Shown piece after piece: positions 5,710-20,852 of a stretch of 57,381 nucleotides of DNA. The translations under genes were made by a program, and so were the position numbers. Below the pieces are notes generated by a model, which saw only the letters and a program-made list of their open reading frames with translations, was not told where the DNA came from and made no database searches. Position 1 is the first letter of the stretch; each line of letters starts with the position of its first letter. Origin of the DNA: an uncultured Gemmatimonas sp. (GTDB taxonomy: Bacteria; Gemmatimonadota; Gemmatimonadetes; Gemmatimonadales; Gemmatimonadaceae); the NCBI GenBank assembly GCA_964445835.1, contig CAYUMN010000001.1, positions 1 through 57,381 on the forward strand, read 5' to 3'.

Positions 5710-7002
5710 TCAGCTCCCGAAGTGTACCACCGCTTGGCGCAACGCGTCGTGATGCGCGGCTTGCTCCGAGAGGGAAATGCCGCGCGCGATGCCGTCCCAT
5801 GCTTGCCGGACACTTGCCGCGCCAGCCGCGGGGCCATCGGGATGCCCAAAGACGCCGCGCCCAGGAACAAAGCCGAAGTCCACCGTGCCGAGGCGCTGAT
5901 AGATGCCCTCGAGCGTCCCGGCCCAATCGCTACCGCCGGGGACGGGAAGGGCGGGCGCGATCGTGCCCATGGGCTCTAGACATGCGCGCACGTTCTCGAG
6001 CACCTCCTGCTCGGACATCATCATACGCGCACCAAAGCCCGGCATGATCACGGCATCGCACCCGGCGAGTCGTTGCAGGCGCGTCATCACGCGCGAGTGC
6101 ACGCCGTAGTGCGGCAAGCGACTGAACGCGGCGATGAACGGAAAGTGCGCGAAGATCGGCACGCGCGCGTGTGCACGGAGGAGTCGCACGCCGCTGAGTC
6201 CCACGGGGAGGGCATTGATCAGGACCGCGTTCGCTCCCGCGTTCACCGCGATATCGTGCAGCGCAGTCAGTCGCGCCACCTCATCCGTCACATTCGCCAT
6301 GTACATCTTGGGCACACCGGTGGCACGCTCGGCGCGCACGCGCGCGGCGCCGAGCAATGCCGCGCGTTCCGCGAGAGGCGACCACGAGGTGTCGCCGAGC
6401 ATCTCATCGTCCTTGGCGATATCAAGACCGCCGAGCCAGGCCTGCTCACCGATCGCCGAGAAGGGCTCCGGTGCGAGTCCGATGTTGGGCTTGATGACGC
6501 CGAGGAAGATCGGGCGGTCGTAGGCGTTGAGCAGTCGCCGAATGCCCGCCACACCGAACTGTGGTCCGTCGAATTCCGCGAGAAACGATGCGGGGAAGCG
6601 GATGTCCTCGAGCCGAATGATCGGCACCCCAGGCACGAAGAAGACGCCTTCGCCCATCACGGCGGACATCAGGTTCGGAAGCCGCGGGCCGAAGTTCGCG
6701 TGTGGATGCGCGATGGTGACGTGCACGCGATGCACAGGGCCAAGCGGCGGCGCGGGGGGGTCGTACGAGAAGCCGGAGAGTGGCACGGCGTCGAAGGCGA
6801 CGACCTTGGCGGCGAACTGCGGGCGAAAGTCCTCGTCCACACCGACGCGCTTCCACTGTGCCGTGGACTGCTCGCTGCAGAGGTGCGCCGCCGCGAGCCG
6901 CGGATCGCCAGCGCACTCGAACGTGAAGTCGAGCTCGAGGTGCGCTTCGGGATCGAGCACCTCGCGCGTGGTGAAGAAGTGGGGGATGTCGTCGGCGTGC
7001 AT
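5710..7002 (-). CDS. RuBisCO-like protein (form IV, IV-Photo type)
   Basis: CSEQSTAQWKRVGVDEDFR, VIKPNIG, GGLDIAKDDEML, ANVTDEV, AHFPF, PVPGGSD, FVPGRGVFGHP. From memory these closely match the Chlorobaculum tepidum RLP. It lacks the KPKxG second Lys and HR pair of true RuBisCO. Confidence 0.93.
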   Translation of the reverse strand: MHADDIPHFFTTREVLDPEAHLELDFTFECAGDPRLAAAHLCSEQSTAQWKRVGVDEDFRPQFAAKVVAFDAVPLSGFSYDPPAPPLGPVHRVHVTIAHPHANFGPRLPNLMSAVMGEGVFFVPGVPIIRLEDIRFPASFLAEFDGPQFGVAGIRRLLNAYDRPIFLGVIKPNIGLAPEPFSAIGEQAWLGGLDIAKDDEMLGDTSWSPLAERAALLGAARVRAERATGVPKMYMANVTDEVARLTALHDIAVNAGANAVLINALPVGLSGVRLLRAHARVPIFAHFPFIAAFSRLPHYGVHSRVMTRLQRLAGCDAVIMPGFGARMMMSEQEVLENVRACLEPMGTIAPALPVPGGSDWAGTLEGIYQRLGTVDFGFVPGRGVFGHPDGPAAGAASVRQAWDGIARGISLSEQAAHHDALRQAVVHFGS

Positions 7003-10579: not shown

Positions 10580-11404
10580 ATGTCACCGCTCACGAATCGC
10601 TCGCGCACGTCGCTCGTTCTTGCCACCCTCGTCCTCGGCCTTGTCGCCGTGGGCTGCTCCGACAGCACCGGTCCCGACCCCGTCTCCCCCACCTTGCCTG
10701 GTGCTGGTCCTGGGACCGGTGGCGCCGGCGGCAATGGCCCCACGCCGGTATTGCTTGGCGCGGCGGGTGACTTCGTCATCCTCGCCAAGACCGGCATCTC
10801 GACCGTCCCGATCTCGGCTATCACCGGAAACATCGGGATCAGCCCGGCCGCGGCGTCCTTCCTCACCGGATTCTCACTGACGCTCGGCAGCGGCGCGGCC
10901 TTCGCGACCTCGACGCAGGTGACGGGGAACGTGTTCGCGCCGGGCTATGCCGTCCCGACGCCGACGAATCTGACCACGGCGGTCGGCGCGATGCAGACGG
11001 CGTACACCGATGCCGCCGGCCGCACGTTGCCGGATCATGTGGAACTCGCGACGGGCAATCTGGGCGGGCTCACGCTTCCCCCGGGCCTGTACAAGTGGTC
11101 CAACACCGTCACGATTCCGGCCAACGTCACGCTCGAGGGTGGCGCGACCGACACCTGGATTTTCCAGATCGCTGGAGGCCTGACTCAGTCGTCGGGGAAG
11201 CGCGTGATCCTGAGCGGCGGTGCGTTGGCGGAGAATGTGGTCTGGCAAGTGGCCGGCGTGGTCACGATCGGCACGACGGCGCACATGGAAGGTCGCCTCT
11301 TCTCGCAGACGGCGATTTCAATGGGTACCGGCGCAAGGGTCAACGGACGCCTCTATGCGCAGACGGCCGTCACGATGGCCAGCGCGACAGTCGTGGTGAA
11401 ATAG
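10580..11404 (+). CDS. Ice-binding protein, DUF3494 family, lipoprotein
   Basis: GGAGA RBS; lipobox AVGC; Gly/Pro linker; FVILAKTGIST, ITGNIGISP, MQTAYTDAAGR, TLPPGLYKW, WIFQI, NVVWQVAG, NGRLYAQTAVT. Confidence 0.93.
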   Translation: MSPLTNRSRTSLVLATLVLGLVAVGCSDSTGPDPVSPTLPGAGPGTGGAGGNGPTPVLLGAAGDFVILAKTGISTVPISAITGNIGISPAAASFLTGFSLTLGSGAAFATSTQVTGNVFAPGYAVPTPTNLTTAVGAMQTAYTDAAGRTLPDHVELATGNLGGLTLPPGLYKWSNTVTIPANVTLEGGATDTWIFQIAGGLTQSSGKRVILSGGALAENVVWQVAGVVTIGTTAHMEGRLFSQTAISMGTGARVNGRLYAQTAVTMASATVVVK

Positions 11405-11609
11405 CCGGACGATGTTCGGGAAGGCCGCCCTCGTTGCTTGGGGGCGTCCTCACTCCCGTTCAGGAACACAAGGCTGTTGAGGAGTGCGACGGTGGCAAAT
11501 AACGTCACAAATCGTCATGCTCGCCCTTGCGCCTCAATCGTCGGACGCGGACATTCCCTGTCTGCGCACTCAGCTATAGAAATGGGCGCGCGCACGACTC
11601 GCACCCATC

Positions 11610-13715
11610 ATGTCAGACGACCTTCCCGAATCCCCAATTCCGGAGCCTTCATCGGCCGAGGATGTGCCCAGTACGCCGCGCGGATCCCGCTCCGTGGACC
11701 CGGTCATGGTCAAGCTCGCCGAAGCCACGGGGAGCGAGTATCGAGTTGAACGCGAACTCGGTCGGGGTGGAATGGCGACGGTGTATCTCGCGCACGACCT
11801 GCAGCTCGAGCGCAAGGTCGCCATCAAGGTCATGGGCGCGGATCTGTTCGCCGCCGGCGATATCCTCGTCGATCGGTTCCTGCGGGAGGCCCGGACGGGG
11901 GCGCGGCTCAATCACCCGCACATCATCCCCGTCTACGCGATCCGCGAGTCGAAGGAGCTGATCTACTTCGTGATGAAGTTCATCGACGGGAAGCCGCTCG
12001 ATGACGTGATCAGCAAGTACGGCCCCCTCCCGATCGCGCTCGTCGCGCGCGTGATGGCGCAGGTCGCCGACGCGCTGGCGTACGCGCACCGCAACGGCAT
12101 CGTGCACCGGGACATCAAGCCCGGCAACATCATGCTGGACAAAGAGGGGTGGGTGGTCCTCACCGACCTCGGCATCGCGAAGGTCCAAGAAGCCTCGATG
12201 CTCACGGCCACGGGTTCGGCGATCGGGACGCCGACCTACATGAGCCCCGAGCAGAGCAGCGGATCGAAGGAGACGACCGGCGCGTCGGACCAGTACTCAC
12301 TCGGCTGCGTCGCCTTCGAGATGCTCACGGGGCGTCCGCCCTTCCAGTCGGACTCGATGATCGGCCTGATCTTCCAGCATCACGCCGATCCGCCGCCGCC
12401 GTTGCACACGCTGCGCTCGGATGTGCCGGGGGACATTGCCGCGGCCGTGATGAAGATGCTCGCCAAAGGTCCGGAGGATCGGTACGCGAGTATGGAAGAG
12501 TGCGCGCAGTTCTTCCGCGATCGCTCGATGGGGGACGAGGAGGAGTTCCGACTCCTGCTCCGCGCCTTCGCCACAGGATCGGGCACGGAGGAGGCGGCGG
12601 GGCGAGTCAACACGCCACGGACGCCGATGCCGACCAAGAACCCCGCAGTTGGAACGCCGCGTCCGCCGAATCGGCCGAGCCGCCGCGAGGTCGCGGTCTC
12701 GACGACGGGGATGGTGCCGGTGGCGCGTGAGTTCACGACCGGGAACACTCCGGTCGTCGGCATGGCGACCGTAGCGGGAGGTCCGACATCGGATGCGGCC
12801 GCCGCGGCGAAGGCCGCGTGGCCGCGCACGCTGATTCGTCCCCCCGAGCAACAGAAGATCACCGCCCGGAGTTTCCGCGCCCCCGGCATCCTCACGATGC
12901 TGTTCGTCGCGGCACTCGTGTGGTTCCTGTTCTTCCCGCAGCTCGGGGATCTCGAGACAACGGTCCCGCAGAGCACCGCACTGATGCTGATGCGACAGAC
13001 CGAGGCCGAGGCCGCGGTGCGCCGTGGGTCGGCGCCCGGGGCCGAGGGAAGTTGCGAGGGAGTGCGCAACGATCTCCCGAACTGTCGGAAGCAGACGCCA
13101 GTCTCGCTCGACAGCATCGCGCCGGCGATGGTCGACGCGGTAAGGTTCGCGACCGACTCGCTCTTCAACGCGCGTCAGGGCGCCGATTGGATCGCGATGC
13201 GTCGGGCCGCGGGCTACCCGCGCGATGCCTTTGAGTGGGGGAACAGCGTCGATCGGTCGGATTTCTTTTCGGTGATGCCCACGCTGCTCAACCACATGGA
13301 CGTCGTGGGGCAGTCAGGTTCGTTGACGCAACGCGTGGTGCAGACGATCTGGTATCCGGCGGACAACGGCCTCTTCCGCAAGGCGCGTGAGATTCGTCTG
13401 GCGAACCGGTTGGCGGGAACGCTGACGAAGGATCGGATTCTTGAGCTCTACCTGAACGTCGCGGAGTTCGGCCCTGGGCTGTACGGTGTTGAGGCCGCAT
13501 CGCAGTCGTATTTCGGCATTCCGGCGAGCAAGCTGAGCAAGGCGCAGGCTGCGACGCTCGCCGCCACGCTGGCCACGCCGCGGACCTCGACGCCTGCGCA
13601 GGAGCCCGAGGCGATGACGCGGCGGCAGCGGCTGATCCTCCGCCGACTGAATGGCGAAGCGGTCAGTATCCCCGTCGCGTACGTCGCCACGGATTCGGCG
13701 CCGCGTGCGCCCTAA
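11610..13715 (+). CDS. Hanks-type Ser/Thr kinase + TM helix + degenerate GT51 (MtgA-like) transglycosylase domain
   Basis: Kinase: GRGGMATV, VAIKV, HRDIKPGN, DLG, YMSPEQ, SDQYSLG. TM: ILTMLFVAALVWFLFF. GT51: RKARE, KDRILELYLNVAEFG..YGVEAASQSYFG, with motif 1 altered to TDSLFNARQG. Confidence 0.9.
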   Translation: MSDDLPESPIPEPSSAEDVPSTPRGSRSVDPVMVKLAEATGSEYRVERELGRGGMATVYLAHDLQLERKVAIKVMGADLFAAGDILVDRFLREARTGARLNHPHIIPVYAIRESKELIYFVMKFIDGKPLDDVISKYGPLPIALVARVMAQVADALAYAHRNGIVHRDIKPGNIMLDKEGWVVLTDLGIAKVQEASMLTATGSAIGTPTYMSPEQSSGSKETTGASDQYSLGCVAFEMLTGRPPFQSDSMIGLIFQHHADPPPPLHTLRSDVPGDIAAAVMKMLAKGPEDRYASMEECAQFFRDRSMGDEEEFRLLLRAFATGSGTEEAAGRVNTPRTPMPTKNPAVGTPRPPNRPSRREVAVSTTGMVPVAREFTTGNTPVVGMATVAGGPTSDAAAAAKAAWPRTLIRPPEQQKITARSFRAPGILTMLFVAALVWFLFFPQLGDLETTVPQSTALMLMRQTEAEAAVRRGSAPGAEGSCEGVRNDLPNCRKQTPVSLDSIAPAMVDAVRFATDSLFNARQGADWIAMRRAAGYPRDAFEWGNSVDRSDFFSVMPTLLNHMDVVGQSGSLTQRVVQTIWYPADNGLFRKAREIRLANRLAGTLTKDRILELYLNVAEFGPGLYGVEAASQSYFGIPASKLSKAQAATLAATLATPRTSTPAQEPEAMTRRQRLILRRLNGEAVSIPVAYVATDSAPRAP

Positions 13716-14685
13716 CGGCACTCCGCGCCGGCTCCTGCTTGCGGCGCTCTGCCTCTTGGGCGTCGCCGGGTGTGCGGCGCGTCCGAAGCTCTGGCTCTTC
13801 ACGGCACCGTGGGATGTGCGGAGCGATTCCGCGCTCGCCTCTGGGGTCGCGCCGAGGGCGACGATCATCTCGGGCTGGATCAGCCTAGACTCTGCGGGTG
13901 GCCTGCCGGTGACGCTCTTCGAGGATCCGCCACGCGACCCAGATGAGCGTCGCGGCGATCGCTTCGCCCTGATCACGAGCTATCGCGTCGACAAGTTCCA
14001 CCCGGAAGCGGTCCGCGCGCTGGCCCGCGATGTGGCGGCCCGCCAGCGCGCCGCCGATGCCGTGGAGACGCTGGTGCGCGCCGGTACCTACGCGGGTGTG
14101 GTGCTGGATCTTGAGGCACTCGAGATCAGCGACACCACGGCGCTCGCCGTCGTCACGGCGTCGTTGAGCGCCGCGGCACGACGTGGTGGCGCACGCGAAG
14201 TCGCGATCGCGGTCCCTGCGCTCGATACGGTGGCGTACGCGGCGCGGGTGCTGCTGCCGCATGTCGATCGCCTGTTGGTGATGCTCTACGATCAGCATTG
14301 GACCGGCTCCGAACCCGGCCCCGTGGCGGCGCGCGCGTGGGCGCGTGAGGCGCTGCAGCGCTGGGTCGCGTCGGCGGGAGCCGACCGCGTGGTCGCGGCG
14401 CTGCCGGTGTACGGCTACCACTGGCGCACTGGCGTCGCGACCGATGTGGTGGGGTGGAGCGATGTGCAACGTTTGGCTCGCGAGTCCGGGGCACGCGCCG
14501 CGCGCGACACGGCCTCGGGCTCCCTGCGCCTGCAGATGGGCGAGCAGGGAGAGGCCTGGCTCGCGGACGGCCCGCTCTTGGCCCACATGGCAGAGGACGC
14601 GCGCGCGCTCGGCGTGCGCACCGTGGCGCTCTGGCGCCTCGGCCTCGAGGATCCGGCGGTCTGGACCGCCTTGGGAGTGCGATGA
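13705..14685 (+). CDS. GH18-like glycoside hydrolase lipoprotein
   Basis: Lipobox VAGC; YAGVVLDLE (DxE), VMLYDQHW..SEPGPVA, ALPVYGYHW, ALWRLGLEDP. GTG start overlaps the kinase stop by 11 nt. Confidence 0.85.
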   Translation: MRPNGTPRRLLLAALCLLGVAGCAARPKLWLFTAPWDVRSDSALASGVAPRATIISGWISLDSAGGLPVTLFEDPPRDPDERRGDRFALITSYRVDKFHPEAVRALARDVAARQRAADAVETLVRAGTYAGVVLDLEALEISDTTALAVVTASLSAAARRGGAREVAIAVPALDTVAYAARVLLPHVDRLLVMLYDQHWTGSEPGPVAARAWAREALQRWVASAGADRVVAALPVYGYHWRTGVATDVVGWSDVQRLARESGARAARDTASGSLRLQMGEQGEAWLADGPLLAHMAEDARALGVRTVALWRLGLEDPAVWTALGVR

Positions 14686-16184
14686 CGACCTTTGTGAAAA
14701 GTGGGATCGCGCCGCTCGATCGCCAGATTGGCGGCTTCGTCCCCGGGCGCCCCTACCTGATCTCCGGCAATCCGGGCACCGGGAAGAGCACCGCCTGTCT
14801 CGAGTTCATCGACGCGGGCGTGCAAGCGGGAGAGCGTGGATTGATTCTCACCCATGATGACCCAGGTGACCTGCTCGATTCTGCGGAGTTCCTCGGGATC
14901 GATCTCGGCGAATCGCTGCTCACCGATCGTGTCCGTATCGTCACCTTCCAGCTCGACTTCGTGCGCCGCTTCATGCGCGCCGCCACGCCGATGCAGGCCT
15001 TCGAGGAGCTGCTTCGGCAGATCGGCGACGAGCCGGTGCAGCGGATCAGCATCGATTCCATCGTCCCCTTCCTCGAGGGCGGAGGCGCGGGATCGCAGTC
15101 GATCTTCTCACTCGTGGATTTCCTCGACGCGTTGCAGGCGACCGCCATGATCACCTACCCCGGGGATCTCGCGGGACTCTACGATCAGCGACTGGAACCC
15201 TTGCTGCAGCGGGCGGGCGGCGTCTTTCACCTCGCCGCCTCCGAGCACGGCCGTCGTCGCGGCAACCTGCAGATCCGCAAGCTGCGTCATCAGGCGCGGT
15301 CGGTCGCGCCGGTGCGCTACAAGATCGATCCGGGATTCGGCTACGCGCAGGACGGTGAGCCGAACGTGAAGGAAGACACGATGATCGAGGAGCTGCGCCG
15401 GCGTCTGTTGATCGTGCGGCTGAGTGCGCCGTTTCCGGAAGGGTTGTTGGCGACGCTCCAAACCAGCTTCTCGGTCACGGTGCGTGCCTCGATGCCGCCG
15501 CAGTTCGCTGAGTCGATCCGCGACGGGATGGGCGCGCTCATGTTGTGCGTGCAGCGCGACACGCTCGACGATGCCCTGCAAGGCGTGCGGCAACTCCGCG
15601 CGGCGGACGTCCGGACGCCGGTCGTGCTCGTCACGCCATTTCATCTGCGTGCGAGTGATCGTACGCGTGCCCTGCGTGCCGGTGCGGACGACTTCCTCAG
15701 TGCGAATCTTTCCGAGCCCGAGTTCGTCGAGCGGTTGCGCGGCATTGTGCGGCGCGGGCGCTCGAAGGCGCTGGCGAGCCGCGACCAAGGCATTCCGACC
15801 GTCCTGCAGCCGATGGACGATCAAGGCCGCTATCAGTTGTTCGACGAAGATGGCTTCGCGTCGACGGTGCAGTCGGTCCTGACCTCGGTGCGCGATCCCT
15901 TCTTTGCTGTCCTGCGTGTCTCCTCTCCCGGCGGCGATCAGAACGCGCTCGCGGCATTGATGATTCGCGTGCTCCGCGTGGACAGCGGAGACTTCGCTGG
16001 CGTGTTGGGCGAGGGGGTGACTGCGTATCTCGAGGGGGCGCGACCGGCAGACCTCACGGGGCTACTCGCACGCATCGATAAGCAGTGGGCCGATGAAGGC
16101 GGGCCACCGCTGCACGCCGAGACCATGGGCTTCCCTTCGGACGGCGAGCGTCTCTACGCGCTCCTTGGGCTTTCGGTCGCCTAA
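14682..16184 (+). CDS. KaiC/RecA-like ATPase + pseudo-receiver + degenerate GGDEF-like domain protein
   Basis: SGIAPLDRQIGG, Walker A GNPGTGKS, Walker B ISIDSI, KLR finger; REC-like ALRAGADDFLS without an obvious phospho-Asp; C-terminal LRVDSGDFAG. ATGA overlap with the previous gene. Confidence 0.8.
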   Translation: MTTFVKSGIAPLDRQIGGFVPGRPYLISGNPGTGKSTACLEFIDAGVQAGERGLILTHDDPGDLLDSAEFLGIDLGESLLTDRVRIVTFQLDFVRRFMRAATPMQAFEELLRQIGDEPVQRISIDSIVPFLEGGGAGSQSIFSLVDFLDALQATAMITYPGDLAGLYDQRLEPLLQRAGGVFHLAASEHGRRRGNLQIRKLRHQARSVAPVRYKIDPGFGYAQDGEPNVKEDTMIEELRRRLLIVRLSAPFPEGLLATLQTSFSVTVRASMPPQFAESIRDGMGALMLCVQRDTLDDALQGVRQLRAADVRTPVVLVTPFHLRASDRTRALRAGADDFLSANLSEPEFVERLRGIVRRGRSKALASRDQGIPTVLQPMDDQGRYQLFDEDGFASTVQSVLTSVRDPFFAVLRVSSPGGDQNALAALMIRVLRVDSGDFAGVLGEGVTAYLEGARPADLTGLLARIDKQWADEGGPPLHAETMGFPSDGERLYALLGLSVA

Positions 16185-18512
16185 GTGAGCATCAAGAAGA
16201 CCTCGTCGCTCGGCTATGCGATCAGCTTCGCGGTCGGACTCGGCGGGCTCACGCTCGGGGCTATTGGCGCGTTCTGGCAGGTGACGGGAGGCGAAGTGCG
16301 CCGGAGCGCGGCCGAAGCCGCCGAGGCCACGCAGCCGCGTCCGGTGTGGGTCGATACCACCACGCCATGGCAGCCGTCCCCGGAGGTCGCGCTCCTCGAC
16401 ACGTTGTACATGCTGCGCAACGAGGGACGTCTCGAGGAAGCGCTGGAGGTGGTGGAGCGATGGCTGAGCGATCATCCCGACGATCGCCCGATCCGCCTCG
16501 ACGGCGCGCGGATTGCGTTCGAAGCGAAGGTGCGCGCGCGGGGCGTGTTCCACTACCGACGCTATCTCTTCGGTGGTGAAGACAACGACGTGCTGCGCGA
16601 AGCGGTGAGCCGGATCCTCGCCGAGCTGCCACCGCCGGAGGCGCGAAAGGCATTGACGACGTTGCTCCGTGTGGACGATGCCGCGTACACGGCGAGAATC
16701 GGACTCGCGCGGGCGACGGCGGACGCCAGTGATCCCGTGGGCGCCGATACACTGCTCCGGCCGATTCCACCCTTTGCAGACTCGACGGTCGATCAACTGC
16801 GCCTGCTCGTGCGCCGTGCGCAGAATCCTGATATCTCGACGGCGCAACAGTGGGTGCGCGAGTATCCCGACGAGGGGCTCTACCGGCTCGTGCTCGCGCG
16901 CGCACTGAGTCGGGCGGGGCAACCGAGAGAGGCGTTGCAGCATTACGTGGCAGCGTTCGCGGTGGATACCTCGTTGGCGCTCCGCCACGAGGCGTCCGAT
17001 GTGGCGGTGGCGGGAGAGAATCTTGATATCGCGAGCGGCATCCTGGCAGACATCCTCGCGCAGGAGCCGGAGAATCAGCGGGCGCTGCTTTCGTATGCGC
17101 GCGTGCGCGCGAGGCTCGGCGACAACGCCGGCGCGGTGCGGACTTTTGAGCGCTTGATGGCCCTGAACCCGGATGAGCAGCGCTATCGTGAAGCGCGCGG
17201 TGTGCTGTTCGAGGTGACCGACACGGAGCTGACCATTCCCTTGCTCGCGCGGCTGGTGGCGTTCCGTCCGGATGATGACGTGTTGCGCTTCCGGTACGCG
17301 CAGGATCTCGAGGGTACGCGGCAGTTCGAGAAGGCTGAAGTGCAGTACGACACGCTGCTACTCCGCGTGCCGACGGCGGCGTTGTACCTGACGCGTGCTC
17401 GGCTACGTTCGGCGCGGAATGATCTTGCGGGTGCGATCACCGACGCGGCCGCCTCCGAGCGTTTGGAGCCCTCGGTGGACGCCGCGTTGATTCAGGGTGA
17501 CATCCACCGGTGGCGGCAGGAACGCGAACTGTCACGGGTGGCCTATGCCCGGGCAGCGGCGCTGGCGCCGGATGATGCCCGAGTGACTGAGTCGCGTCGG
17601 TTGTTGGGGGTACAGCGTCGTGAGGCGCTCGCCTTCGAACCCGAGTATGGCAGCGCCATGACGTCCAACGGGATCACGGACTCCGATGGATTCGAGTCGG
17701 TGACGATCCGCGCGCAGGAAGGGTTTGCGCCGCTTGTGGATGAGTCGGTGATCATCGTGGGTGGCGAGGTGCGCCGCACGAGTGGCGCGAACGGCGCGCT
17801 TCTTTCGGGGTTCGGTGGCGATGTCGGTATAGCGCGCCCCGTGGGTGGACTCCAGATGCTTGGCCGCGTTGGCGCGGTGACATTCGGCGGCACTCCGGCG
17901 CTCACTGGCCTCTTCGAGGTGACGAAGCGCTCGCAGCTGCTCTCGCTTCGTGGTGCCCTGACACGGACGCTCGCGTATGAGTCCCTGCGTTCCGGCAACG
18001 TGGTCGCGGCGGACAGCGCCATGGCGGCGACGACGCTCCTCGGCAGTATGAGTGCGCAACTGTCGCCGCGTGTTGATCTCTACGTGCAGGCGGACCACGC
18101 GCGACTTGGTGACGGCAATGCGCGCACCGTGATTGCTGGCGCGGCGCGTCGAAAGGGTTCTGGGCCATTCTCGCTGCTGTACACGGCGAGCGCGGCGACC
18201 TTTATCACTGGGACGGCCCGGTACTTCTCGCCCGATCTGTTCATCACGCAGGGGCTTGGAGTCGATGCGCGTCGCGATCGTCGCGAGGGTTGGTCGGTGG
18301 GTGCGCGCTTGGCGCCATCGTACGCCTGGGTCCGCGAGAGTGCGCCGGGGCGTCCCGCCGGCATGCAAGGGGCGCTGCAAGGGACGCTGTCCGGTGATGC
18401 GACCTGGCGTCGGCCCGGCTGGGAGGTCGGACTCTTCGGTGGCTACGGCCAGGATCGTGCGGGCACGTACCAAGCGGCGTACGGCGGATTGCGTGCGCGG
18501 ATGACCCGATGA
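16185..18512 (+). CDS. TPR-repeat plus C-terminal outer-membrane beta-barrel protein (PgaA/BcsC/PelB-like export protein)
   Basis: N-terminal hydrophobic helix; many TPR-like helix pairs (EALEVVERWLSDHPDD, ILAQEPENQRALLSYARV, YARAAALAPDD); amphipathic beta-strand C-terminal ~280 aa with a YFSP motif. Confidence 0.75.
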   Translation: MSIKKTSSLGYAISFAVGLGGLTLGAIGAFWQVTGGEVRRSAAEAAEATQPRPVWVDTTTPWQPSPEVALLDTLYMLRNEGRLEEALEVVERWLSDHPDDRPIRLDGARIAFEAKVRARGVFHYRRYLFGGEDNDVLREAVSRILAELPPPEARKALTTLLRVDDAAYTARIGLARATADASDPVGADTLLRPIPPFADSTVDQLRLLVRRAQNPDISTAQQWVREYPDEGLYRLVLARALSRAGQPREALQHYVAAFAVDTSLALRHEASDVAVAGENLDIASGILADILAQEPENQRALLSYARVRARLGDNAGAVRTFERLMALNPDEQRYREARGVLFEVTDTELTIPLLARLVAFRPDDDVLRFRYAQDLEGTRQFEKAEVQYDTLLLRVPTAALYLTRARLRSARNDLAGAITDAAASERLEPSVDAALIQGDIHRWRQERELSRVAYARAAALAPDDARVTESRRLLGVQRREALAFEPEYGSAMTSNGITDSDGFESVTIRAQEGFAPLVDESVIIVGGEVRRTSGANGALLSGFGGDVGIARPVGGLQMLGRVGAVTFGGTPALTGLFEVTKRSQLLSLRGALTRTLAYESLRSGNVVAADSAMAATTLLGSMSAQLSPRVDLYVQADHARLGDGNARTVIAGAARRKGSGPFSLLYTASAATFITGTARYFSPDLFITQGLGVDARRDRREGWSVGARLAPSYAWVRESAPGRPAGMQGALQGTLSGDATWRRPGWEVGLFGGYGQDRAGTYQAAYGGLRARMTR

Positions 18513-19837
18513 TCGGCGGCGGAACCCTCAAGGACACGGTGCGCCTCGCGGCCGGCGTCTCCACGCTGATCACGGCCGTGGTCGGTGGCGTCTACCTCGC
18601 GTGGCGCATTCTCGGGCAGACCGAGAGCCTGATGTACATGGGCACCTTCCTGCTCAGCATCATGGTGCTGATGGGATTGGTGGTACGGTATCTCTCCTTC
18701 ATGTGGCTGGGCTATCTGCATCAGGTGGAGCAGACGGCACGGACCGATGCGGTGGGGCAGGTCACCTGGCCTCCGGTGACGATCATTGTGCCGGCGTATA
18801 ATGAGGGCCCGGTGATCGTGCCGGCCATCCGCAGCCTGTTGCAGATCGACTACCCCGCGTACGAGATCCTCGTCGTGGACGATGGGTCGACCGACGACAC
18901 GGCCGAACGGGTCGCGCCGCTGGAAGGACGGCATGGCGACGTCACCGTGCGATTGGTGAGCAAGCTGAATGGCGGAAAGGCGGCCGCGCTCAATACCGGA
19001 ATCGCGCTCGCGCGGCACGACTTTGTGCTGTGTATGGATGGCGACTCCAAGCTCGAGCCGCAGGTCCTCCGCGTCTCGATGCCGCACTTCGCAAAGGACC
19101 ACGTGGCGGCGGTGGCCGGGAACGTGAAGGTGATCAATCGCGATTCGCATCTCGCCCGCTTTCAGGCGCTCGAGTACATCGAAGGGTTGAACATGGCGCG
19201 GCGCGCGCAGGGATTCGTGCGCGTCGTGAACATCATCCCAGGGCCGATCGGGGTCTTCCGGCGGCGGGTGTTGCAGGAGGTCGGCGGCTATGACCGCGAC
19301 ACCTACGCCGAGGACGCGGATCTGACGCTCAAGATCCTTTCGTCCGGCTACCATATCGTGTACGAGGACCGAGCGGTCGCGTGGACCGAGGCCCCCGAAA
19401 CGATCAATGACCTGATCAAGCAGCGGTATCGCTGGACGCGAGGGATCCTCCAGGCGGTGCGGAAGCGCAAGTTGGCGCTGTTGAATCCCGTGTCGCTCTG
19501 GGTCTGGCTCTCCCTCATGATGATGATCTTCGAGGGGATCGTGATGCCGGCGGCGAACATCATCGTGAACGGGATGTTCACGGTGACGGCGCTGGCCACT
19601 GGCGAGTTGGGGGCCTTCATCGTCTGGTGGTTCCTCCTGTTCAACTTGCTCGACCTGATCGCGGCGATGTACTGTGTATCAGGCGAGCAAGAGGAACTCC
19701 GGCTTGTGCCGTACGCGCTCCTGATGCGGTTCTTCTACTTCCCGCTCATCGACGTCACGAAGCTCATGGCTACGGTAGATGAGTTGCAGAACGTCGAGAT
19801 GAACTGGGGCAAACTTCAGCGGCAGGGACGCCTGTGA
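18509..19837 (+). CDS. Processive GT2 synthase, PgaC/IcaA-like
   Basis: PAYNE, DDGSTD, NGGKAAALN, MDGD, AEDADLT, QRYRW; two N-terminal and several C-terminal TM helices; ATGA overlap. Confidence 0.9.
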   Translation: MIGGGTLKDTVRLAAGVSTLITAVVGGVYLAWRILGQTESLMYMGTFLLSIMVLMGLVVRYLSFMWLGYLHQVEQTARTDAVGQVTWPPVTIIVPAYNEGPVIVPAIRSLLQIDYPAYEILVVDDGSTDDTAERVAPLEGRHGDVTVRLVSKLNGGKAAALNTGIALARHDFVLCMDGDSKLEPQVLRVSMPHFAKDHVAAVAGNVKVINRDSHLARFQALEYIEGLNMARRAQGFVRVVNIIPGPIGVFRRRVLQEVGGYDRDTYAEDADLTLKILSSGYHIVYEDRAVAWTEAPETINDLIKQRYRWTRGILQAVRKRKLALLNPVSLWVWLSLMMMIFEGIVMPAANIIVNGMFTVTALATGELGAFIVWWFLLFNLLDLIAAMYCVSGEQEELRLVPYALLMRFFYFPLIDVTKLMATVDELQNVEMNWGKLQRQGRL

Positions 19838-20106
19838 CCGTCGGCACGATTCTCGCGCTCGTCATCCTGATCTCCTTCATGGTGACGTTGATTCTCGCCA
19901 TCGGCAGCTACGCGGCGTACAAGATCCGCGAAACGCGCCGCCCACGCGCGATCTTCACCGCCGATACGGAATTCCAGTTCTTCGAGCGCTATATCCACAC
20001 CCAAGAGGCGCAGGCCTCGCGTGAACGCCGTGTGGCGGAGCGCGAAGCGACGGGCGAGGTGTATGACAACCTCACGACGGAGTACCGTCCGCCGACGTTG
20101 CCGTGA
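19834..20106 (+). CDS. Small single-TM membrane protein (PgaD/IcaD position)
   Basis: GTGA overlap with the GT2 stop; hydrophobic ILALVILISFMVTLILAIGSYAAY followed by a basic stretch. Confidence 0.75.
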   Translation: MTVGTILALVILISFMVTLILAIGSYAAYKIRETRRPRAIFTADTEFQFFERYIHTQEAQASRERRVAEREATGEVYDNLTTEYRPPTLP

Positions 20107-20139
20107 CATCGTTGATCGTCCTCTGACCGGAGCGACACC

Positions 20140-20304
20140 ATGAGCAAGAAGATTCCTGATTTCTCGAGCCACAAGCCGCAGTCCAAGGCGTCCGCGCCCA
20201 AGGGCAGCGACGATGCCGCGCTCAAGTCCGCGATCAAGCCGTCGCCGAAGGTAGCGAGCAAGCCGCAGGCGACCTCGGCGAAGTCGGGACGACGCGGATC
20301 GTAG
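20140..20304 (+). CDS. 54-aa Lys/Ser/Ala/Pro-rich small protein
   Basis: Below the ORF-track cutoff. GGAG RBS, then MSKKIPDFSSHKPQSKASAPKGSDDAALKSAIKPSPKVASKPQATSAKSGRRGS; all Lys codons are AAG and third positions are strongly G/C. Confidence 0.7.
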   Translation: MSKKIPDFSSHKPQSKASAPKGSDDAALKSAIKPSPKVASKPQATSAKSGRRGS

Positions 20305-20307
20305 AGA

Positions 20308-20353
20308 GGGTGCCTGCGGGTGCCTGCGGGGTGCGATCGGTGCGATCGGTGCG
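20308..20353. repeat. Adjacent short tandem duplications (GGGTGCCTGC)x2 and (GGTGCGATC)x2
   Basis: Read directly in the gap between convergent genes. Confidence 0.85.
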
Positions 20354-20378
20354 CGGGTAGCCTAGTGCCCGCGGACGC

Positions 20379-20852
20379 TCAGCCCCACATCGCCCGAATC
20401 GCAGCGGGGGCGGCCGCCAAGAGCCCGAATCGCACGAGACGTCCGCCGAGGCAGATCACCACGAATCGGCCGAATGGGAGGTGGGTCATCCCGGCGGCAA
20501 TCGATGCCAGATGAAACGGCGGAACACTGGTCAACGCGCTCAACGCGAGCACGCCGTTGCCGTACGTTGGACGCGCCGCGAGAAACGCCCTGGTGCGGTC
20601 GACATACCGCTGCGTCCACCTATGCATCACGCGGTCACTCTGGGTGCCGAGCCAGTACCACGGCATCTTGGCGGTGACGTGCGCCAGGGTGAAAACGGCC
20701 CACATGGCGACCGCGAGCTCCGCGGGCAACACCACGCCGATCGCCACTGCGAGCGCTTCGGCCATCCCAATGGGAAGAATACCGGCCCCGAATCCCGCGA
20801 GTGCCGCGGTGCCGAGTGCGAGGACGGGCGAGGAGAGGTCAAAGGTCGGCAC
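20379..20852 (-). CDS. DedA/VTT (YqaA-like) membrane protein
   Basis: Hydrophobic throughout; KMPWYWLG, SVPPFHLASIAAG, GRLVRF. Confidence 0.75.
   Translation of the reverse strand: MPTFDLSSPVLALGTAALAGFGAGILPIGMAEALAVAIGVVLPAELAVAMWAVFTLAHVTAKMPWYWLGTQSDRVMHRWTQRYVDRTRAFLAARPTYGNGVLALSALTSVPPFHLASIAAGMTHLPFGRFVVICLGGRLVRFGLLAAAPAAIRAMWG

Follow-up and report, generated by a model that had tools for sequence, protein, structure and literature searches.

A stretch of 57,381 nucleotides from an uncultured Gemmatimonas sp. of the phylum Gemmatimonadota (GenBank contig CAYUMN010000001.1), referred to here as the window, carries at positions 11610–20106 of its + strand six adjoining genes, for a kinase–GT51 fusion, a GH18 lipoprotein, a regulator, a tetratricopeptide repeat (TPR)-barrel protein, a family 2 glycosyltransferase (GT2) and a small membrane protein. 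We propose, with a probability of about 0.62, that this operon is a synthase-dependent secretion system for a polymer of N-acetylglucosamine (GlcNAc), in which a BcsF-like anchor would keep a BcsE-like regulator at the inner membrane. The features of the locus are:

11610–13715, + strand: membrane Ser/Thr (Hanks-type) kinase (residues 44–296) with a helix (424–442) and a degenerate GT51-like domain (about 493–684); a clade-specific accessory
13705–14685, + strand: GH18-fold lipoprotein, lipobox Cys23, DxE kept, likely a periplasmic polymer hydrolase (Pfam, BLAST, motifs)
14682–16184, + strand: BcsE-like cytoplasmic regulator with a KaiC-type ATPase, a degenerate receiver and a degenerate GGDEF fold (Foldseek, hhalign, domain structure search)
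14766–14789, + strand: Walker A motif of the regulator, intact, residues 29–36
15648–15659, + strand: receiver RxxD motif, R323–D326, aligned with BcsE R306–D309
15975–15992, + strand: conserved site of the GGDEF-like domain, R432...G436-D437, in which the position of BcsE R415 is Asp
16185–18512, + strand: pore protein with an N-terminal hydrophobic helix, a TPR superhelix (about 66–483) and a predicted 16-strand outer-membrane barrel (489–773)
18509–19837, + strand: processive-type GT2 synthase with DD, DxD, ED and QRxRW motifs and at least four hydrophobic helices; 442 amino acids, stand-alone
19834–20106, + strand: single-pass membrane protein of 90 amino acids, BcsF-like, predicted anchor of the regulator (hydropathy, complex prediction)
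19978–19992, + strand: conserved FFERY segment of the small protein, residues 49–53, flanked by the clade-specific Thr45 and Thr56

The kinase and GH18 genes overlap by 11 nt, with GTG as the GH18 start codon, and the junctions that follow are ATGA (GH18/regulator), TAA-GTG (regulator/TPR-barrel), ATGA (TPR-barrel/GT2) and GTGA (GT2/small gene). A preliminary description of this DNA had drawn the same six coupled genes and five junctions, and its coordinates and overlaps were identical on re-reading; its gene identities also agree with Pfam, which returned kinase and Transgly, GH18 (borderline), KaiC and REC, TPR and GT2 domains. A scan of positions 11300–20500 for sigma-70 promoters and terminators gave no match, as did an Rfam scan of the window.

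Related loci were compared using gene maps from a codon-score heuristic caller, in which several starts are imprecise. The maps cover 41 loci from a regulator-profile search, 20 regions picked out of 36 matches and 15 of the 18 non-self matches of an even phylum-wide draw; among the other three matches, one was a locus already mapped (L091) and two were seen with 1.5 kb flanks only. All six genes follow one another in the same order at seven loci (L012–L018), and a truncated locus (L011) has five of them. Because the order is kept in L012–L018 while the genes flanking L011–L018 mostly differ, the six-gene arrangement is no chance assembly, and the co-occurrence in relatives on which the preliminary description had staked its proposal is real. 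Across Gemmatimonadota the conserved core consists of four genes, those for the regulator, the TPR-barrel protein, the GT2 synthase and the small membrane protein, and their order is kept in seven families. In the phylum-wide draw 18 of 301 genomes, again from seven families, had the small gene. When loci were pooled and de-duplicated it was present in 52, the window counted (45 with the GT2 gene and 7 with the regulator gene only), in a pool that is skewed to the clade of the window and whose loci are not independent. All 41 loci from the regulator-profile search are Gemmatimonadota records. Searched with a profile, a set of 1.84 billion proteins yielded 89 regulator clusters at E ≤1e-30; among the 20 looked up, both that carry a taxon label are from Gemmatimonadota and no member beyond the phylum was confirmed. 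The ESM Atlas has rows for Campylobacterota and Acidobacteriota, which serve as leads and no more. A search of the regulator against plasmids found no match, and for RNA no holder was listed.

The preliminary description had recognized a synthase-dependent export system in the combination of synthase, small partner, periplasmic hydrolase and TPR-porin, and our analysis supports such a system by a membrane GT2 with the catalytic motifs and a TPR scaffold with an export barrel, the barrel being a predicted structure. The pore model (67 sequences; mean predicted local distance difference test score, pLDDT, 90.9) begins with a long helix, continues as a TPR superhelix and ends in 16 strands, so that the barrel on which the preliminary description had let its reading depend is borne out by prediction. 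In a structure search of 48,161 chains the best match was PgaA (4y25; Z 25.8, root-mean-square deviation (rmsd) 2.7, 273 residues aligned), followed by PelB (Z 23.6) and BcsC (Z 23.1); the next barrel was OmpG at Z 15.0, so that polysaccharide pores score 23–26 and others at most 15. Foldseek placed BcsC on top. In profile comparisons with PgaA and BcsC the TPR parts align and the barrel does not. If its first helix is uncleaved, the fused pore of the window could be anchored in both membranes. The corresponding gene is split in two at several loci (L033, L035, L039, L042, L050, L086, L087 and L089–L093), into a protein of 160–180 amino acids with a hydrophobic N terminus and a TPR-barrel of 600–660 amino acids (shorter at contig ends), several of which carry their own signal-like start. 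At L012:4097-6427 one in-frame stop near residue 220 breaks the TPR-barrel gene, through sequencing error or recent loss.

The synthase matches the Pfam GT2 model (E = 4e-34) and has no PilZ match. Its best NCBIfam model is PgaC_IcaA, and CE4 and GH18 enzymes, which are encoded beside many relatives of the operon, act on GlcNAc glycans. Its top plasmid matches are proteins of 1100–1150 amino acids; three of the four scanned are GH18-CE4-GT2 fusions and the fourth has CE4 and GT2 domains with a GH18-like region detected by BLAST. E values by BLAST run from 1e-57 to 1e-72 for such fusions and a Streptomyces CE4-GT2 protein, from 1e-37 to 1e-46 for PgaC and IcaA, and from 1e-20 to 1e-24 for NodC. 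The phylogeny against PgaC, IcaA and NodC that had been suggested with the preliminary description set the synthase apart from all three. In this midpoint-rooted tree, which has no true chitin synthase among its rows, 25 Gemmatimonadota GT2s form a clade (98/97) separate from PgaC/IcaA (99/96) and from the fusions (99/96). Approximately unbiased (AU) tests of 19 rows under LG+G4 gave P = 0.41 for union with the fusions and P = 0.124 for union with PgaC/IcaA, neither of them rejected, and rejected union with NodC (P = 0.03), whose model scores 100 bits against a cut-off of 550. Chitin_synth_2 matches at E = 1e-7 over 96 residues only. A Streptomyces CE4-GT2 protein scores 183 bits on the PgaC_IcaA model, also below its cut-off; the 210 bits of the operon synthase are therefore compatible with poly-N-acetylglucosamine (PNAG). 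The available part of a report on Streptomyces MatB, a CE4-GT2 protein to which our Streptomyces reference is likened by architecture, describes beta-1,6 PNAG as its product although its CE4 domain resembles beta-1,4 deacetylases (PMC5972031). The best model, the CE4 and GH18 neighbours and the analogy with MatB make a GlcNAc polymer the likely product, with a beta-1,6 (PNAG-like) linkage somewhat more likely than beta-1,4. The genome that carries the operon (G000) encodes a second GT2 with a QxxRW motif (contig C11; L010:7197-11769), 27% identical, which is preceded by genes for a HEAT-repeat protein and a receiver-Hpt protein.

The regulator matches Pfam KaiC (7.5e-22) and REC (6e-4), and its model has a pLDDT of 80.8 and a predicted template modelling score of 0.54. 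Foldseek returned full-length Escherichia coli BcsE first (9fo7_E; E = 8e-18, 517 columns, 10% identity), and this match, together with the order of three domains, backs the BcsE likeness noted in the preliminary description. Taken by domain, the best structural matches are KaiC (Z 24.0), receivers (Z 14) and, for residues 378–497, a GGDEF-like fold matching the diguanylate cyclase 6khu (Z 13.0, rmsd 2.9, 116 residues aligned). Comparison with BcsE by hhalign places R323–D326 on R306–D309 and D437 on D418, in an alignment that is itself weak (E = 0.005, probability 7%). R323 and D326 are invariant in 42 of 42 rows. In the GGDEF-like domain R432, which lies two residues before the position of BcsE R415, is invariant in 39 phylum-wide rows, and two distant members (L115 and L119) have the RxxD of that domain. 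Diguanylate cyclase genes lie divergently upstream at 6 of the 41 loci, and G000 has 8 GGDEF matches. The part of a preprint available to us describes R415 of BcsE as needed for cyclic di-GMP (c-di-GMP) binding (10.1101/2024.06.05.597511). Sensing of c-di-GMP by the regulator is plausible and not secured, because the R415 position is Asp though this arginine is described as necessary. Walker A, Walker B and arginine finger motifs are present, the KaiC TFEE aligns with THDD, and 117 of 120 regulator homologues have RKxR; judged by such motifs, ATP binding is likely and ATP hydrolysis doubtful. Walker A has decayed in several of the lineages L118, L120–L124 and L126, where the anchor motif is also more divergent. 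Loci whose regulator is reduced to the ATPase domain (L090–L093) retain the pore gene, and those on contigs long enough also have the synthase, small and CE4 genes. No bcs genes occur among the neighbour genes scanned.

Hydropathy gives the small protein one helix in 31 of 31 members, as in BcsF, versus two in PgaD and IcaD; past the helix come basic residues and then the conserved FFERY-like segment. A Pfam scan of the 90-residue protein returned nothing, including CBP_BcsF (PF11120), sequence likeness to BcsF is not detectable (13 columns aligned, E = 0.012), and a profile comparison with PgaD gave no match (E = 0.59). Complex prediction for the regulator ATPase domain (residues 1–232) and residues 1–62 of the small protein scored 0.71, compared with 0.00 for the best of three controls, and passed a mark that 116 of 157 solved complexes attain, as do 2 of 215 mismatched pairs. 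At least 96% of the contacts are common to the runs and the pLDDT of the partner is at least 66. In the predicted interface, residues 49–53 of the small protein pair with strand 85–90 of the ATPase domain; beta-sheet complementation, strand to strand, is what the available part of the preprint describes for BcsF and BcsE (10.1101/2024.06.05.597511). Genetic support comes from the seven loci without the TPR-barrel and GT2 genes, where the small gene directly follows the regulator gene: four belong to one lineage (L024, L028, L029 and L044), which is otherwise syntenic with L021 and L022, and the others are L032, L046 and L127, the last from a distant family. Five genomes with the pair only were searched for the GT2 and had no close orthologue (best 39%). 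The small protein is thus predicted to be a BcsF-like anchor of the regulator, and the PgaD-like role that the preliminary description gave it does not survive its single helix, the missing PgaD profile match, its retention with the regulator where the GT2 is absent and its predicted binding to the ATPase domain. Four genomes with the pair only (G054–G057; L070–L073) have elsewhere an open frame some 1146 codons long, of which about 920 amino acids align with GH18-CE4-GT2 fusions, and the pair may now serve its product instead.

The GH18 protein scores slightly below the Pfam cut-off (29.1 against 29.6 bits, E = 1e-6) and matches the GH18 domain of the fusion synthases at up to E = 5e-24 (a Bacillus fusion), with several common motifs including DxE. 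Among the 45 loci with GT2, CE4 lies directly downstream in 29 (30 with L088, the truncated CE4 of which fell under the counting threshold), GH18 is nearby in 16 and both are present in 7. The GH18 gene lies upstream of, divergent from or downstream of the operon in different lineages, and these differing positions suggest a functional tie. Since both proteins resemble domains of widespread GH18-CE4-GT2 fusions, the pairing of a GH18 with such a GT2 is common, and the unusual part is the set with the pore and the regulator pair. The preliminary description therefore overstated the novelty of a GH18 in the place of PgaB, given that GH18 and CE4 occur together in the 7 loci and in common fusion proteins.

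Its statement that the system has no deacetylase holds for the clade of the window and a few others and fails as a trait of the system, as most relatives carry CE4: in the phylum-wide draw a CE4 gene, of the Polysacc_deac_1 type with a GH42M-like domain, is next in line in 13 of the 18 non-self loci. The operon of the window has no deacetylase gene, and one query for the operon-type CE4 did not find it in G000 (84.8% complete), in the genomes behind L011–L018 or in those behind L021, L022, L025, L026 and L034, with two weak partial matches overall at E = 1e-6. G000 has three unlinked CE4 matches in unrelated contexts, and deacetylation in trans by one of these is possible. Because CE4-bearing members branch first in the midpoint-rooted GT2 tree, loss of CE4 is the likely direction of change. 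In L042 and L050 the CE4 after the small gene no longer has the Asp and His motifs that are conserved in the other nine aligned members. One sub-clade (L027, L030, L037, L042, L045, L047, L050, L082 and L116) has an Ig-like (Big_2) gene after CE4, usually followed by a PD40 beta-propeller gene.

The kinase–GT51 fusion (Pfam kinase E = 7e-49, Transgly E = 6e-33) has intact kinase motifs. The motif-1 Glu of GT51 enzymes is catalytic; it is Thr in the window, and is kept in 10 of 31 members of the fusion family versus 22 of 23 plain GT51 proteins. The kinase of the window does not have the full set of motif-1 Glu and His and motif-2 GxSTxTQQ that marks active GT51 enzymes. The family is narrow, with 31 proteins at ≥53% identity and then a drop to plain GT51. 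Within 55 genomes of the genus the fusion is found in 11 and the GT2 in 8 (both in 7, kinase only in 4, GT2 only in 1), and the four kinase-only genomes, which are 81–98% complete and form one lineage, have no match to the operon GT2 or regulator and no close GH18 match (best 31–32%). This stand-alone lineage (L069 and L139–L141) has genomes of 2.1–2.3 Mb, and the gene beside its kinase presumably encodes an ammonium transporter, going by its sequence. Of 251 genomes drawn at family level, 33 have the regulator and 3 the fusion; together with the kinase-only genomes, this rules out the kinase as a universal part of the operon. Other kinases near L086, L087, L089, L092, L122 and L126 and in the cluster upstream of L039, L042 and L050 are convergent, divergent or some genes away, those of L086 and L087 had no GT51 when scanned, and we treated all of them as chance neighbours. 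We regard the fusion as a clade-specific, co-transcribed passenger or modulator, with a chance of about one in four that it functionally controls secretion.

These results can be arranged into a working model of the operon. The GT2 would polymerize GlcNAc from UDP-GlcNAc and pass the chain across the inner membrane. A route over the periplasm and the outer membrane would be provided by the TPR helix and the 16-strand barrel, whose fold is predicted, and the GH18 lipoprotein would trim or clear stray polymer. The FFERY tail of the small protein is predicted to extend the ATPase sheet and so to bring the regulator next to the synthase. There the regulator may gate synthesis on a nucleotide signal, by analogy with BcsE most likely c-di-GMP; this is the weakest step. 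In the clade of the window, where CE4 is absent from nine incomplete genomes, the polymer would keep all its acetyl groups, barring the action of an unlinked CE4.

Several observations weigh against this model. The 210 bits of the synthase fall well below the PgaC_IcaA cut-off of 422 (E. coli PgaC scores 648), it lies outside the PgaC/IcaA clade, and no characterized protein was found in its own clade, so that substrate and linkage are arrived at indirectly. Domain by domain, KaiC outscores BcsE as a match for the regulator (Z 24 and Z 14.4), the BcsE alignment covers 425 residues at an rmsd of 15.8, and the hhalign match is weak, as given above. Pfam CBP_BcsE (PF10995) is absent from the regulator at E 0.1, whereas E. 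coli BcsE scores 757 bits on it, and the position of R415 is never Arg in the 14 commonest forms among 120 homologues, being mostly Asp or Glu. The score of the predicted complex may stem from likeness to the solved BcsE–BcsF pair. Regulator and anchor are kept without the synthase in seven loci, so the pair can serve something else, and the nearest solved relatives of the GH18 include spore and peptidoglycan glycosylases.

Two alternative explanations turn on the kinase. All six genes could form one machine, in which the degenerate GT51 domain senses lipid II or peptidoglycan and the kinase phosphorylates the complex, most plausibly on the anchor tail. The kinase gene lies 0–73 nt from the GH18 gene or overlaps it in all eight clade loci where this is visible (L012–L018 and the window), the kinase accompanies a GT2 clade (support 100/100) whose members come from different genera and from two families, the kinase motifs are intact, and all nine small proteins of the kinase clade have Thr45 and Thr56 on either side of the predicted interface, compared with 2 of 36 and 0 of 36 elsewhere in a count that leaves out 7 proteins without the motif. 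The threonine pattern nevertheless belongs to a single clade and is no independent evidence; 4 of the 11 fusion genomes in the genus, although of one lineage, have neither operon GT2 nor regulator; the fusion is far rarer than the regulator in the family draw; and with 47 kinase matches in G000, kinase neighbours are common. We consider a single machine unlikely. Alternatively, the GH18 and the degenerate-GT51 kinase could be a cell-wall module, the GH18 opening peptidoglycan for the pore and sparing the exported polymer. The two genes are adjacent, both products have glycan-binding folds, and YdhD, SleL and another GH18 are among the solved relatives of the GH18 protein; against this, GH18 accompanies the operon without the kinase in 7 loci, the kinase-only lineage lacks a close GH18 match, and fusions of this GH18 type to synthases occur in both Gram-positive and Gram-negative hosts. 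We think such a module quite improbable.

The product and the small protein can also be read differently. GH18 enzymes typically cleave beta-1,4 GlcNAc, and the polymer could be beta-1,4 and chitin-like with the GH18, in which DxE is kept, as cognate chitinase; CE4-bearing relatives would then make a chitosan-like polymer. The presence of GH18 beside the operon in 16 of the 45 GT2 loci, at three positions, and the placement of the synthase outside PgaC/IcaA fit this, but union with NodC is rejected, the NodC score is far below its cut-off, the Chitin_synth_2 match is short, and MatB is described in the report cited above as making beta-1,6 PNAG in spite of its beta-1,4-like CE4. A chitin-like product therefore seems rather unlikely to us. 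The position of the small gene directly after GT2 in all 45 loci with both, like that of pgaD and icaD, would suit a PgaD/IcaD-type co-polymerase, leaving the ATPase protein an unrelated regulator; the helix count, the failed PgaD profile comparison, the retention with the regulator alone and the complex prediction all speak for the anchor, and we give the co-polymerase little chance, although the small protein may serve both regulator and GT2. A still broader picture, in which the exported product is a GlcNAc homopolymer with all its acetyl groups, perhaps genuine bacterial chitin, under a kinase that reads lipid II with a dead transglycosylase domain and switches export by phosphorylating the two threonines beside the docking strand of a still-ATP-binding BcsE ancestor, and in which the BcsE–BcsF module is older than and independent of cellulose secretion, is a long shot as a whole.

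Around the operon, a possible basic open frame of 54 codons (20140–20304, + strand) starts 33 nt past the small gene, and an ice-binding-like gene (PF11999; 10439–11404, + strand) ends 205 nt before the kinase gene and is not at that place in the mapped relatives. Elsewhere in the window are a RuBisCO large-chain-like protein, probably a RuBisCO-like protein (5710–7002, − strand), and a large alpha-glucan region (23966–52303) with several alpha-amylase-family genes, GH97, GH77, starch synthase, a fused EIIA-HPr-EI phosphotransferase system protein, EIICB and a gene for a protein of 988 amino acids, which we take by eye to be TonB/SusC-like.

The operon is a real variant of synthase-dependent secretion and apparently undescribed. 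Genome-wide operon surveys may already hold such operons. Our literature search, made mostly without subscription papers, found no description of the operon, of a BcsE-like protein outside cellulose systems or of a kinase–GT51 fusion, in agreement with the preliminary description, which knew of no system with this combination. A supplementary figure on PNAG clusters in soil genomes, of which we had partial sight, may include such operons under an automatic label (10.1101/2022.05.02.490339), and in the reviews consulted BcsE belongs to cellulose systems of the E. coli type, in beta- and gamma-proteobacteria (PMC8892547). With a BcsE/BcsF-like pair that serves another synthase in a second phylum, and with Walker A motifs graded from intact to decayed, both the origin of this module and the activation of a synthase that lacks PilZ can be put to the test. 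Natural contrasts are available within the family as well, with and without the deacetylase, with and without the kinase, and with the regulator pair in the absence of the synthase. A kinase whose outside domain derives from a transglycosylase would represent a novel type of cell-wall sensor, irrespective of any control over the operon.

Comparison with known systems places the operon between several of them. The regulator shares with E. coli BcsE the ATPase–receiver–GGDEF order along its full length, a receiver RxxD in register and the existence of variants with the ATPase domain only. It differs in that Walker A and a KaiC-type RKxR are intact in the clade of the window, whereas the BcsE domain is degenerate, and in that the arginine of the GGDEF I-site is replaced; the locus lacks BcsA, BcsB, BcsG, BcsQ and BcsR, and its synthase is a PilZ-less, GlcNAc-type GT2. 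The small protein resembles BcsF in its single helix and in a tail that complements the beta-sheet of the regulator, here by prediction only, but does not match PF11120. The kinase recalls PknB/Stk1, with a cytoplasmic Hanks kinase, one helix and an outside domain derived from cell-wall machinery; a degenerate GT51 domain sits where those have PASTA repeats, and the protein scores 309 bits against a cut-off of 450 and is confined to a narrow clade.

With PgaABCD and IcaADBC the operon has in common a synthase of similar size and the same catalytic motifs, a small membrane gene after it, a PgaA-like TPR and 16-strand barrel and, in most relatives, a CE4 gene next in line. Its GT2, however, is under the equivalog cut-off and in a separate clade, the two-helix PgaD/IcaD and PgaB are missing at the locus, the CE4 of relatives, which has a GH42M-like domain, is a different protein from PgaB, and a GH18 stands in place of the PgaB hydrolase domain. 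The GH18-CE4-GT2 and CE4-GT2 fusions (MatB type; Bacillus, Prevotella and Deinococcus plasmid examples) provide the best matches for both GT2 and GH18 and combine the same three activities as CE4-bearing relatives of the operon, whereas the operon has separate genes, a dedicated pore and a regulator pair, and its GT2 domain is set apart from theirs in the tree although the AU test does not reject their union. Overall, the operon resembles an exporter of the Pga type fitted with a BcsEF-like pair of control proteins; by the tests run, it belongs to neither family.

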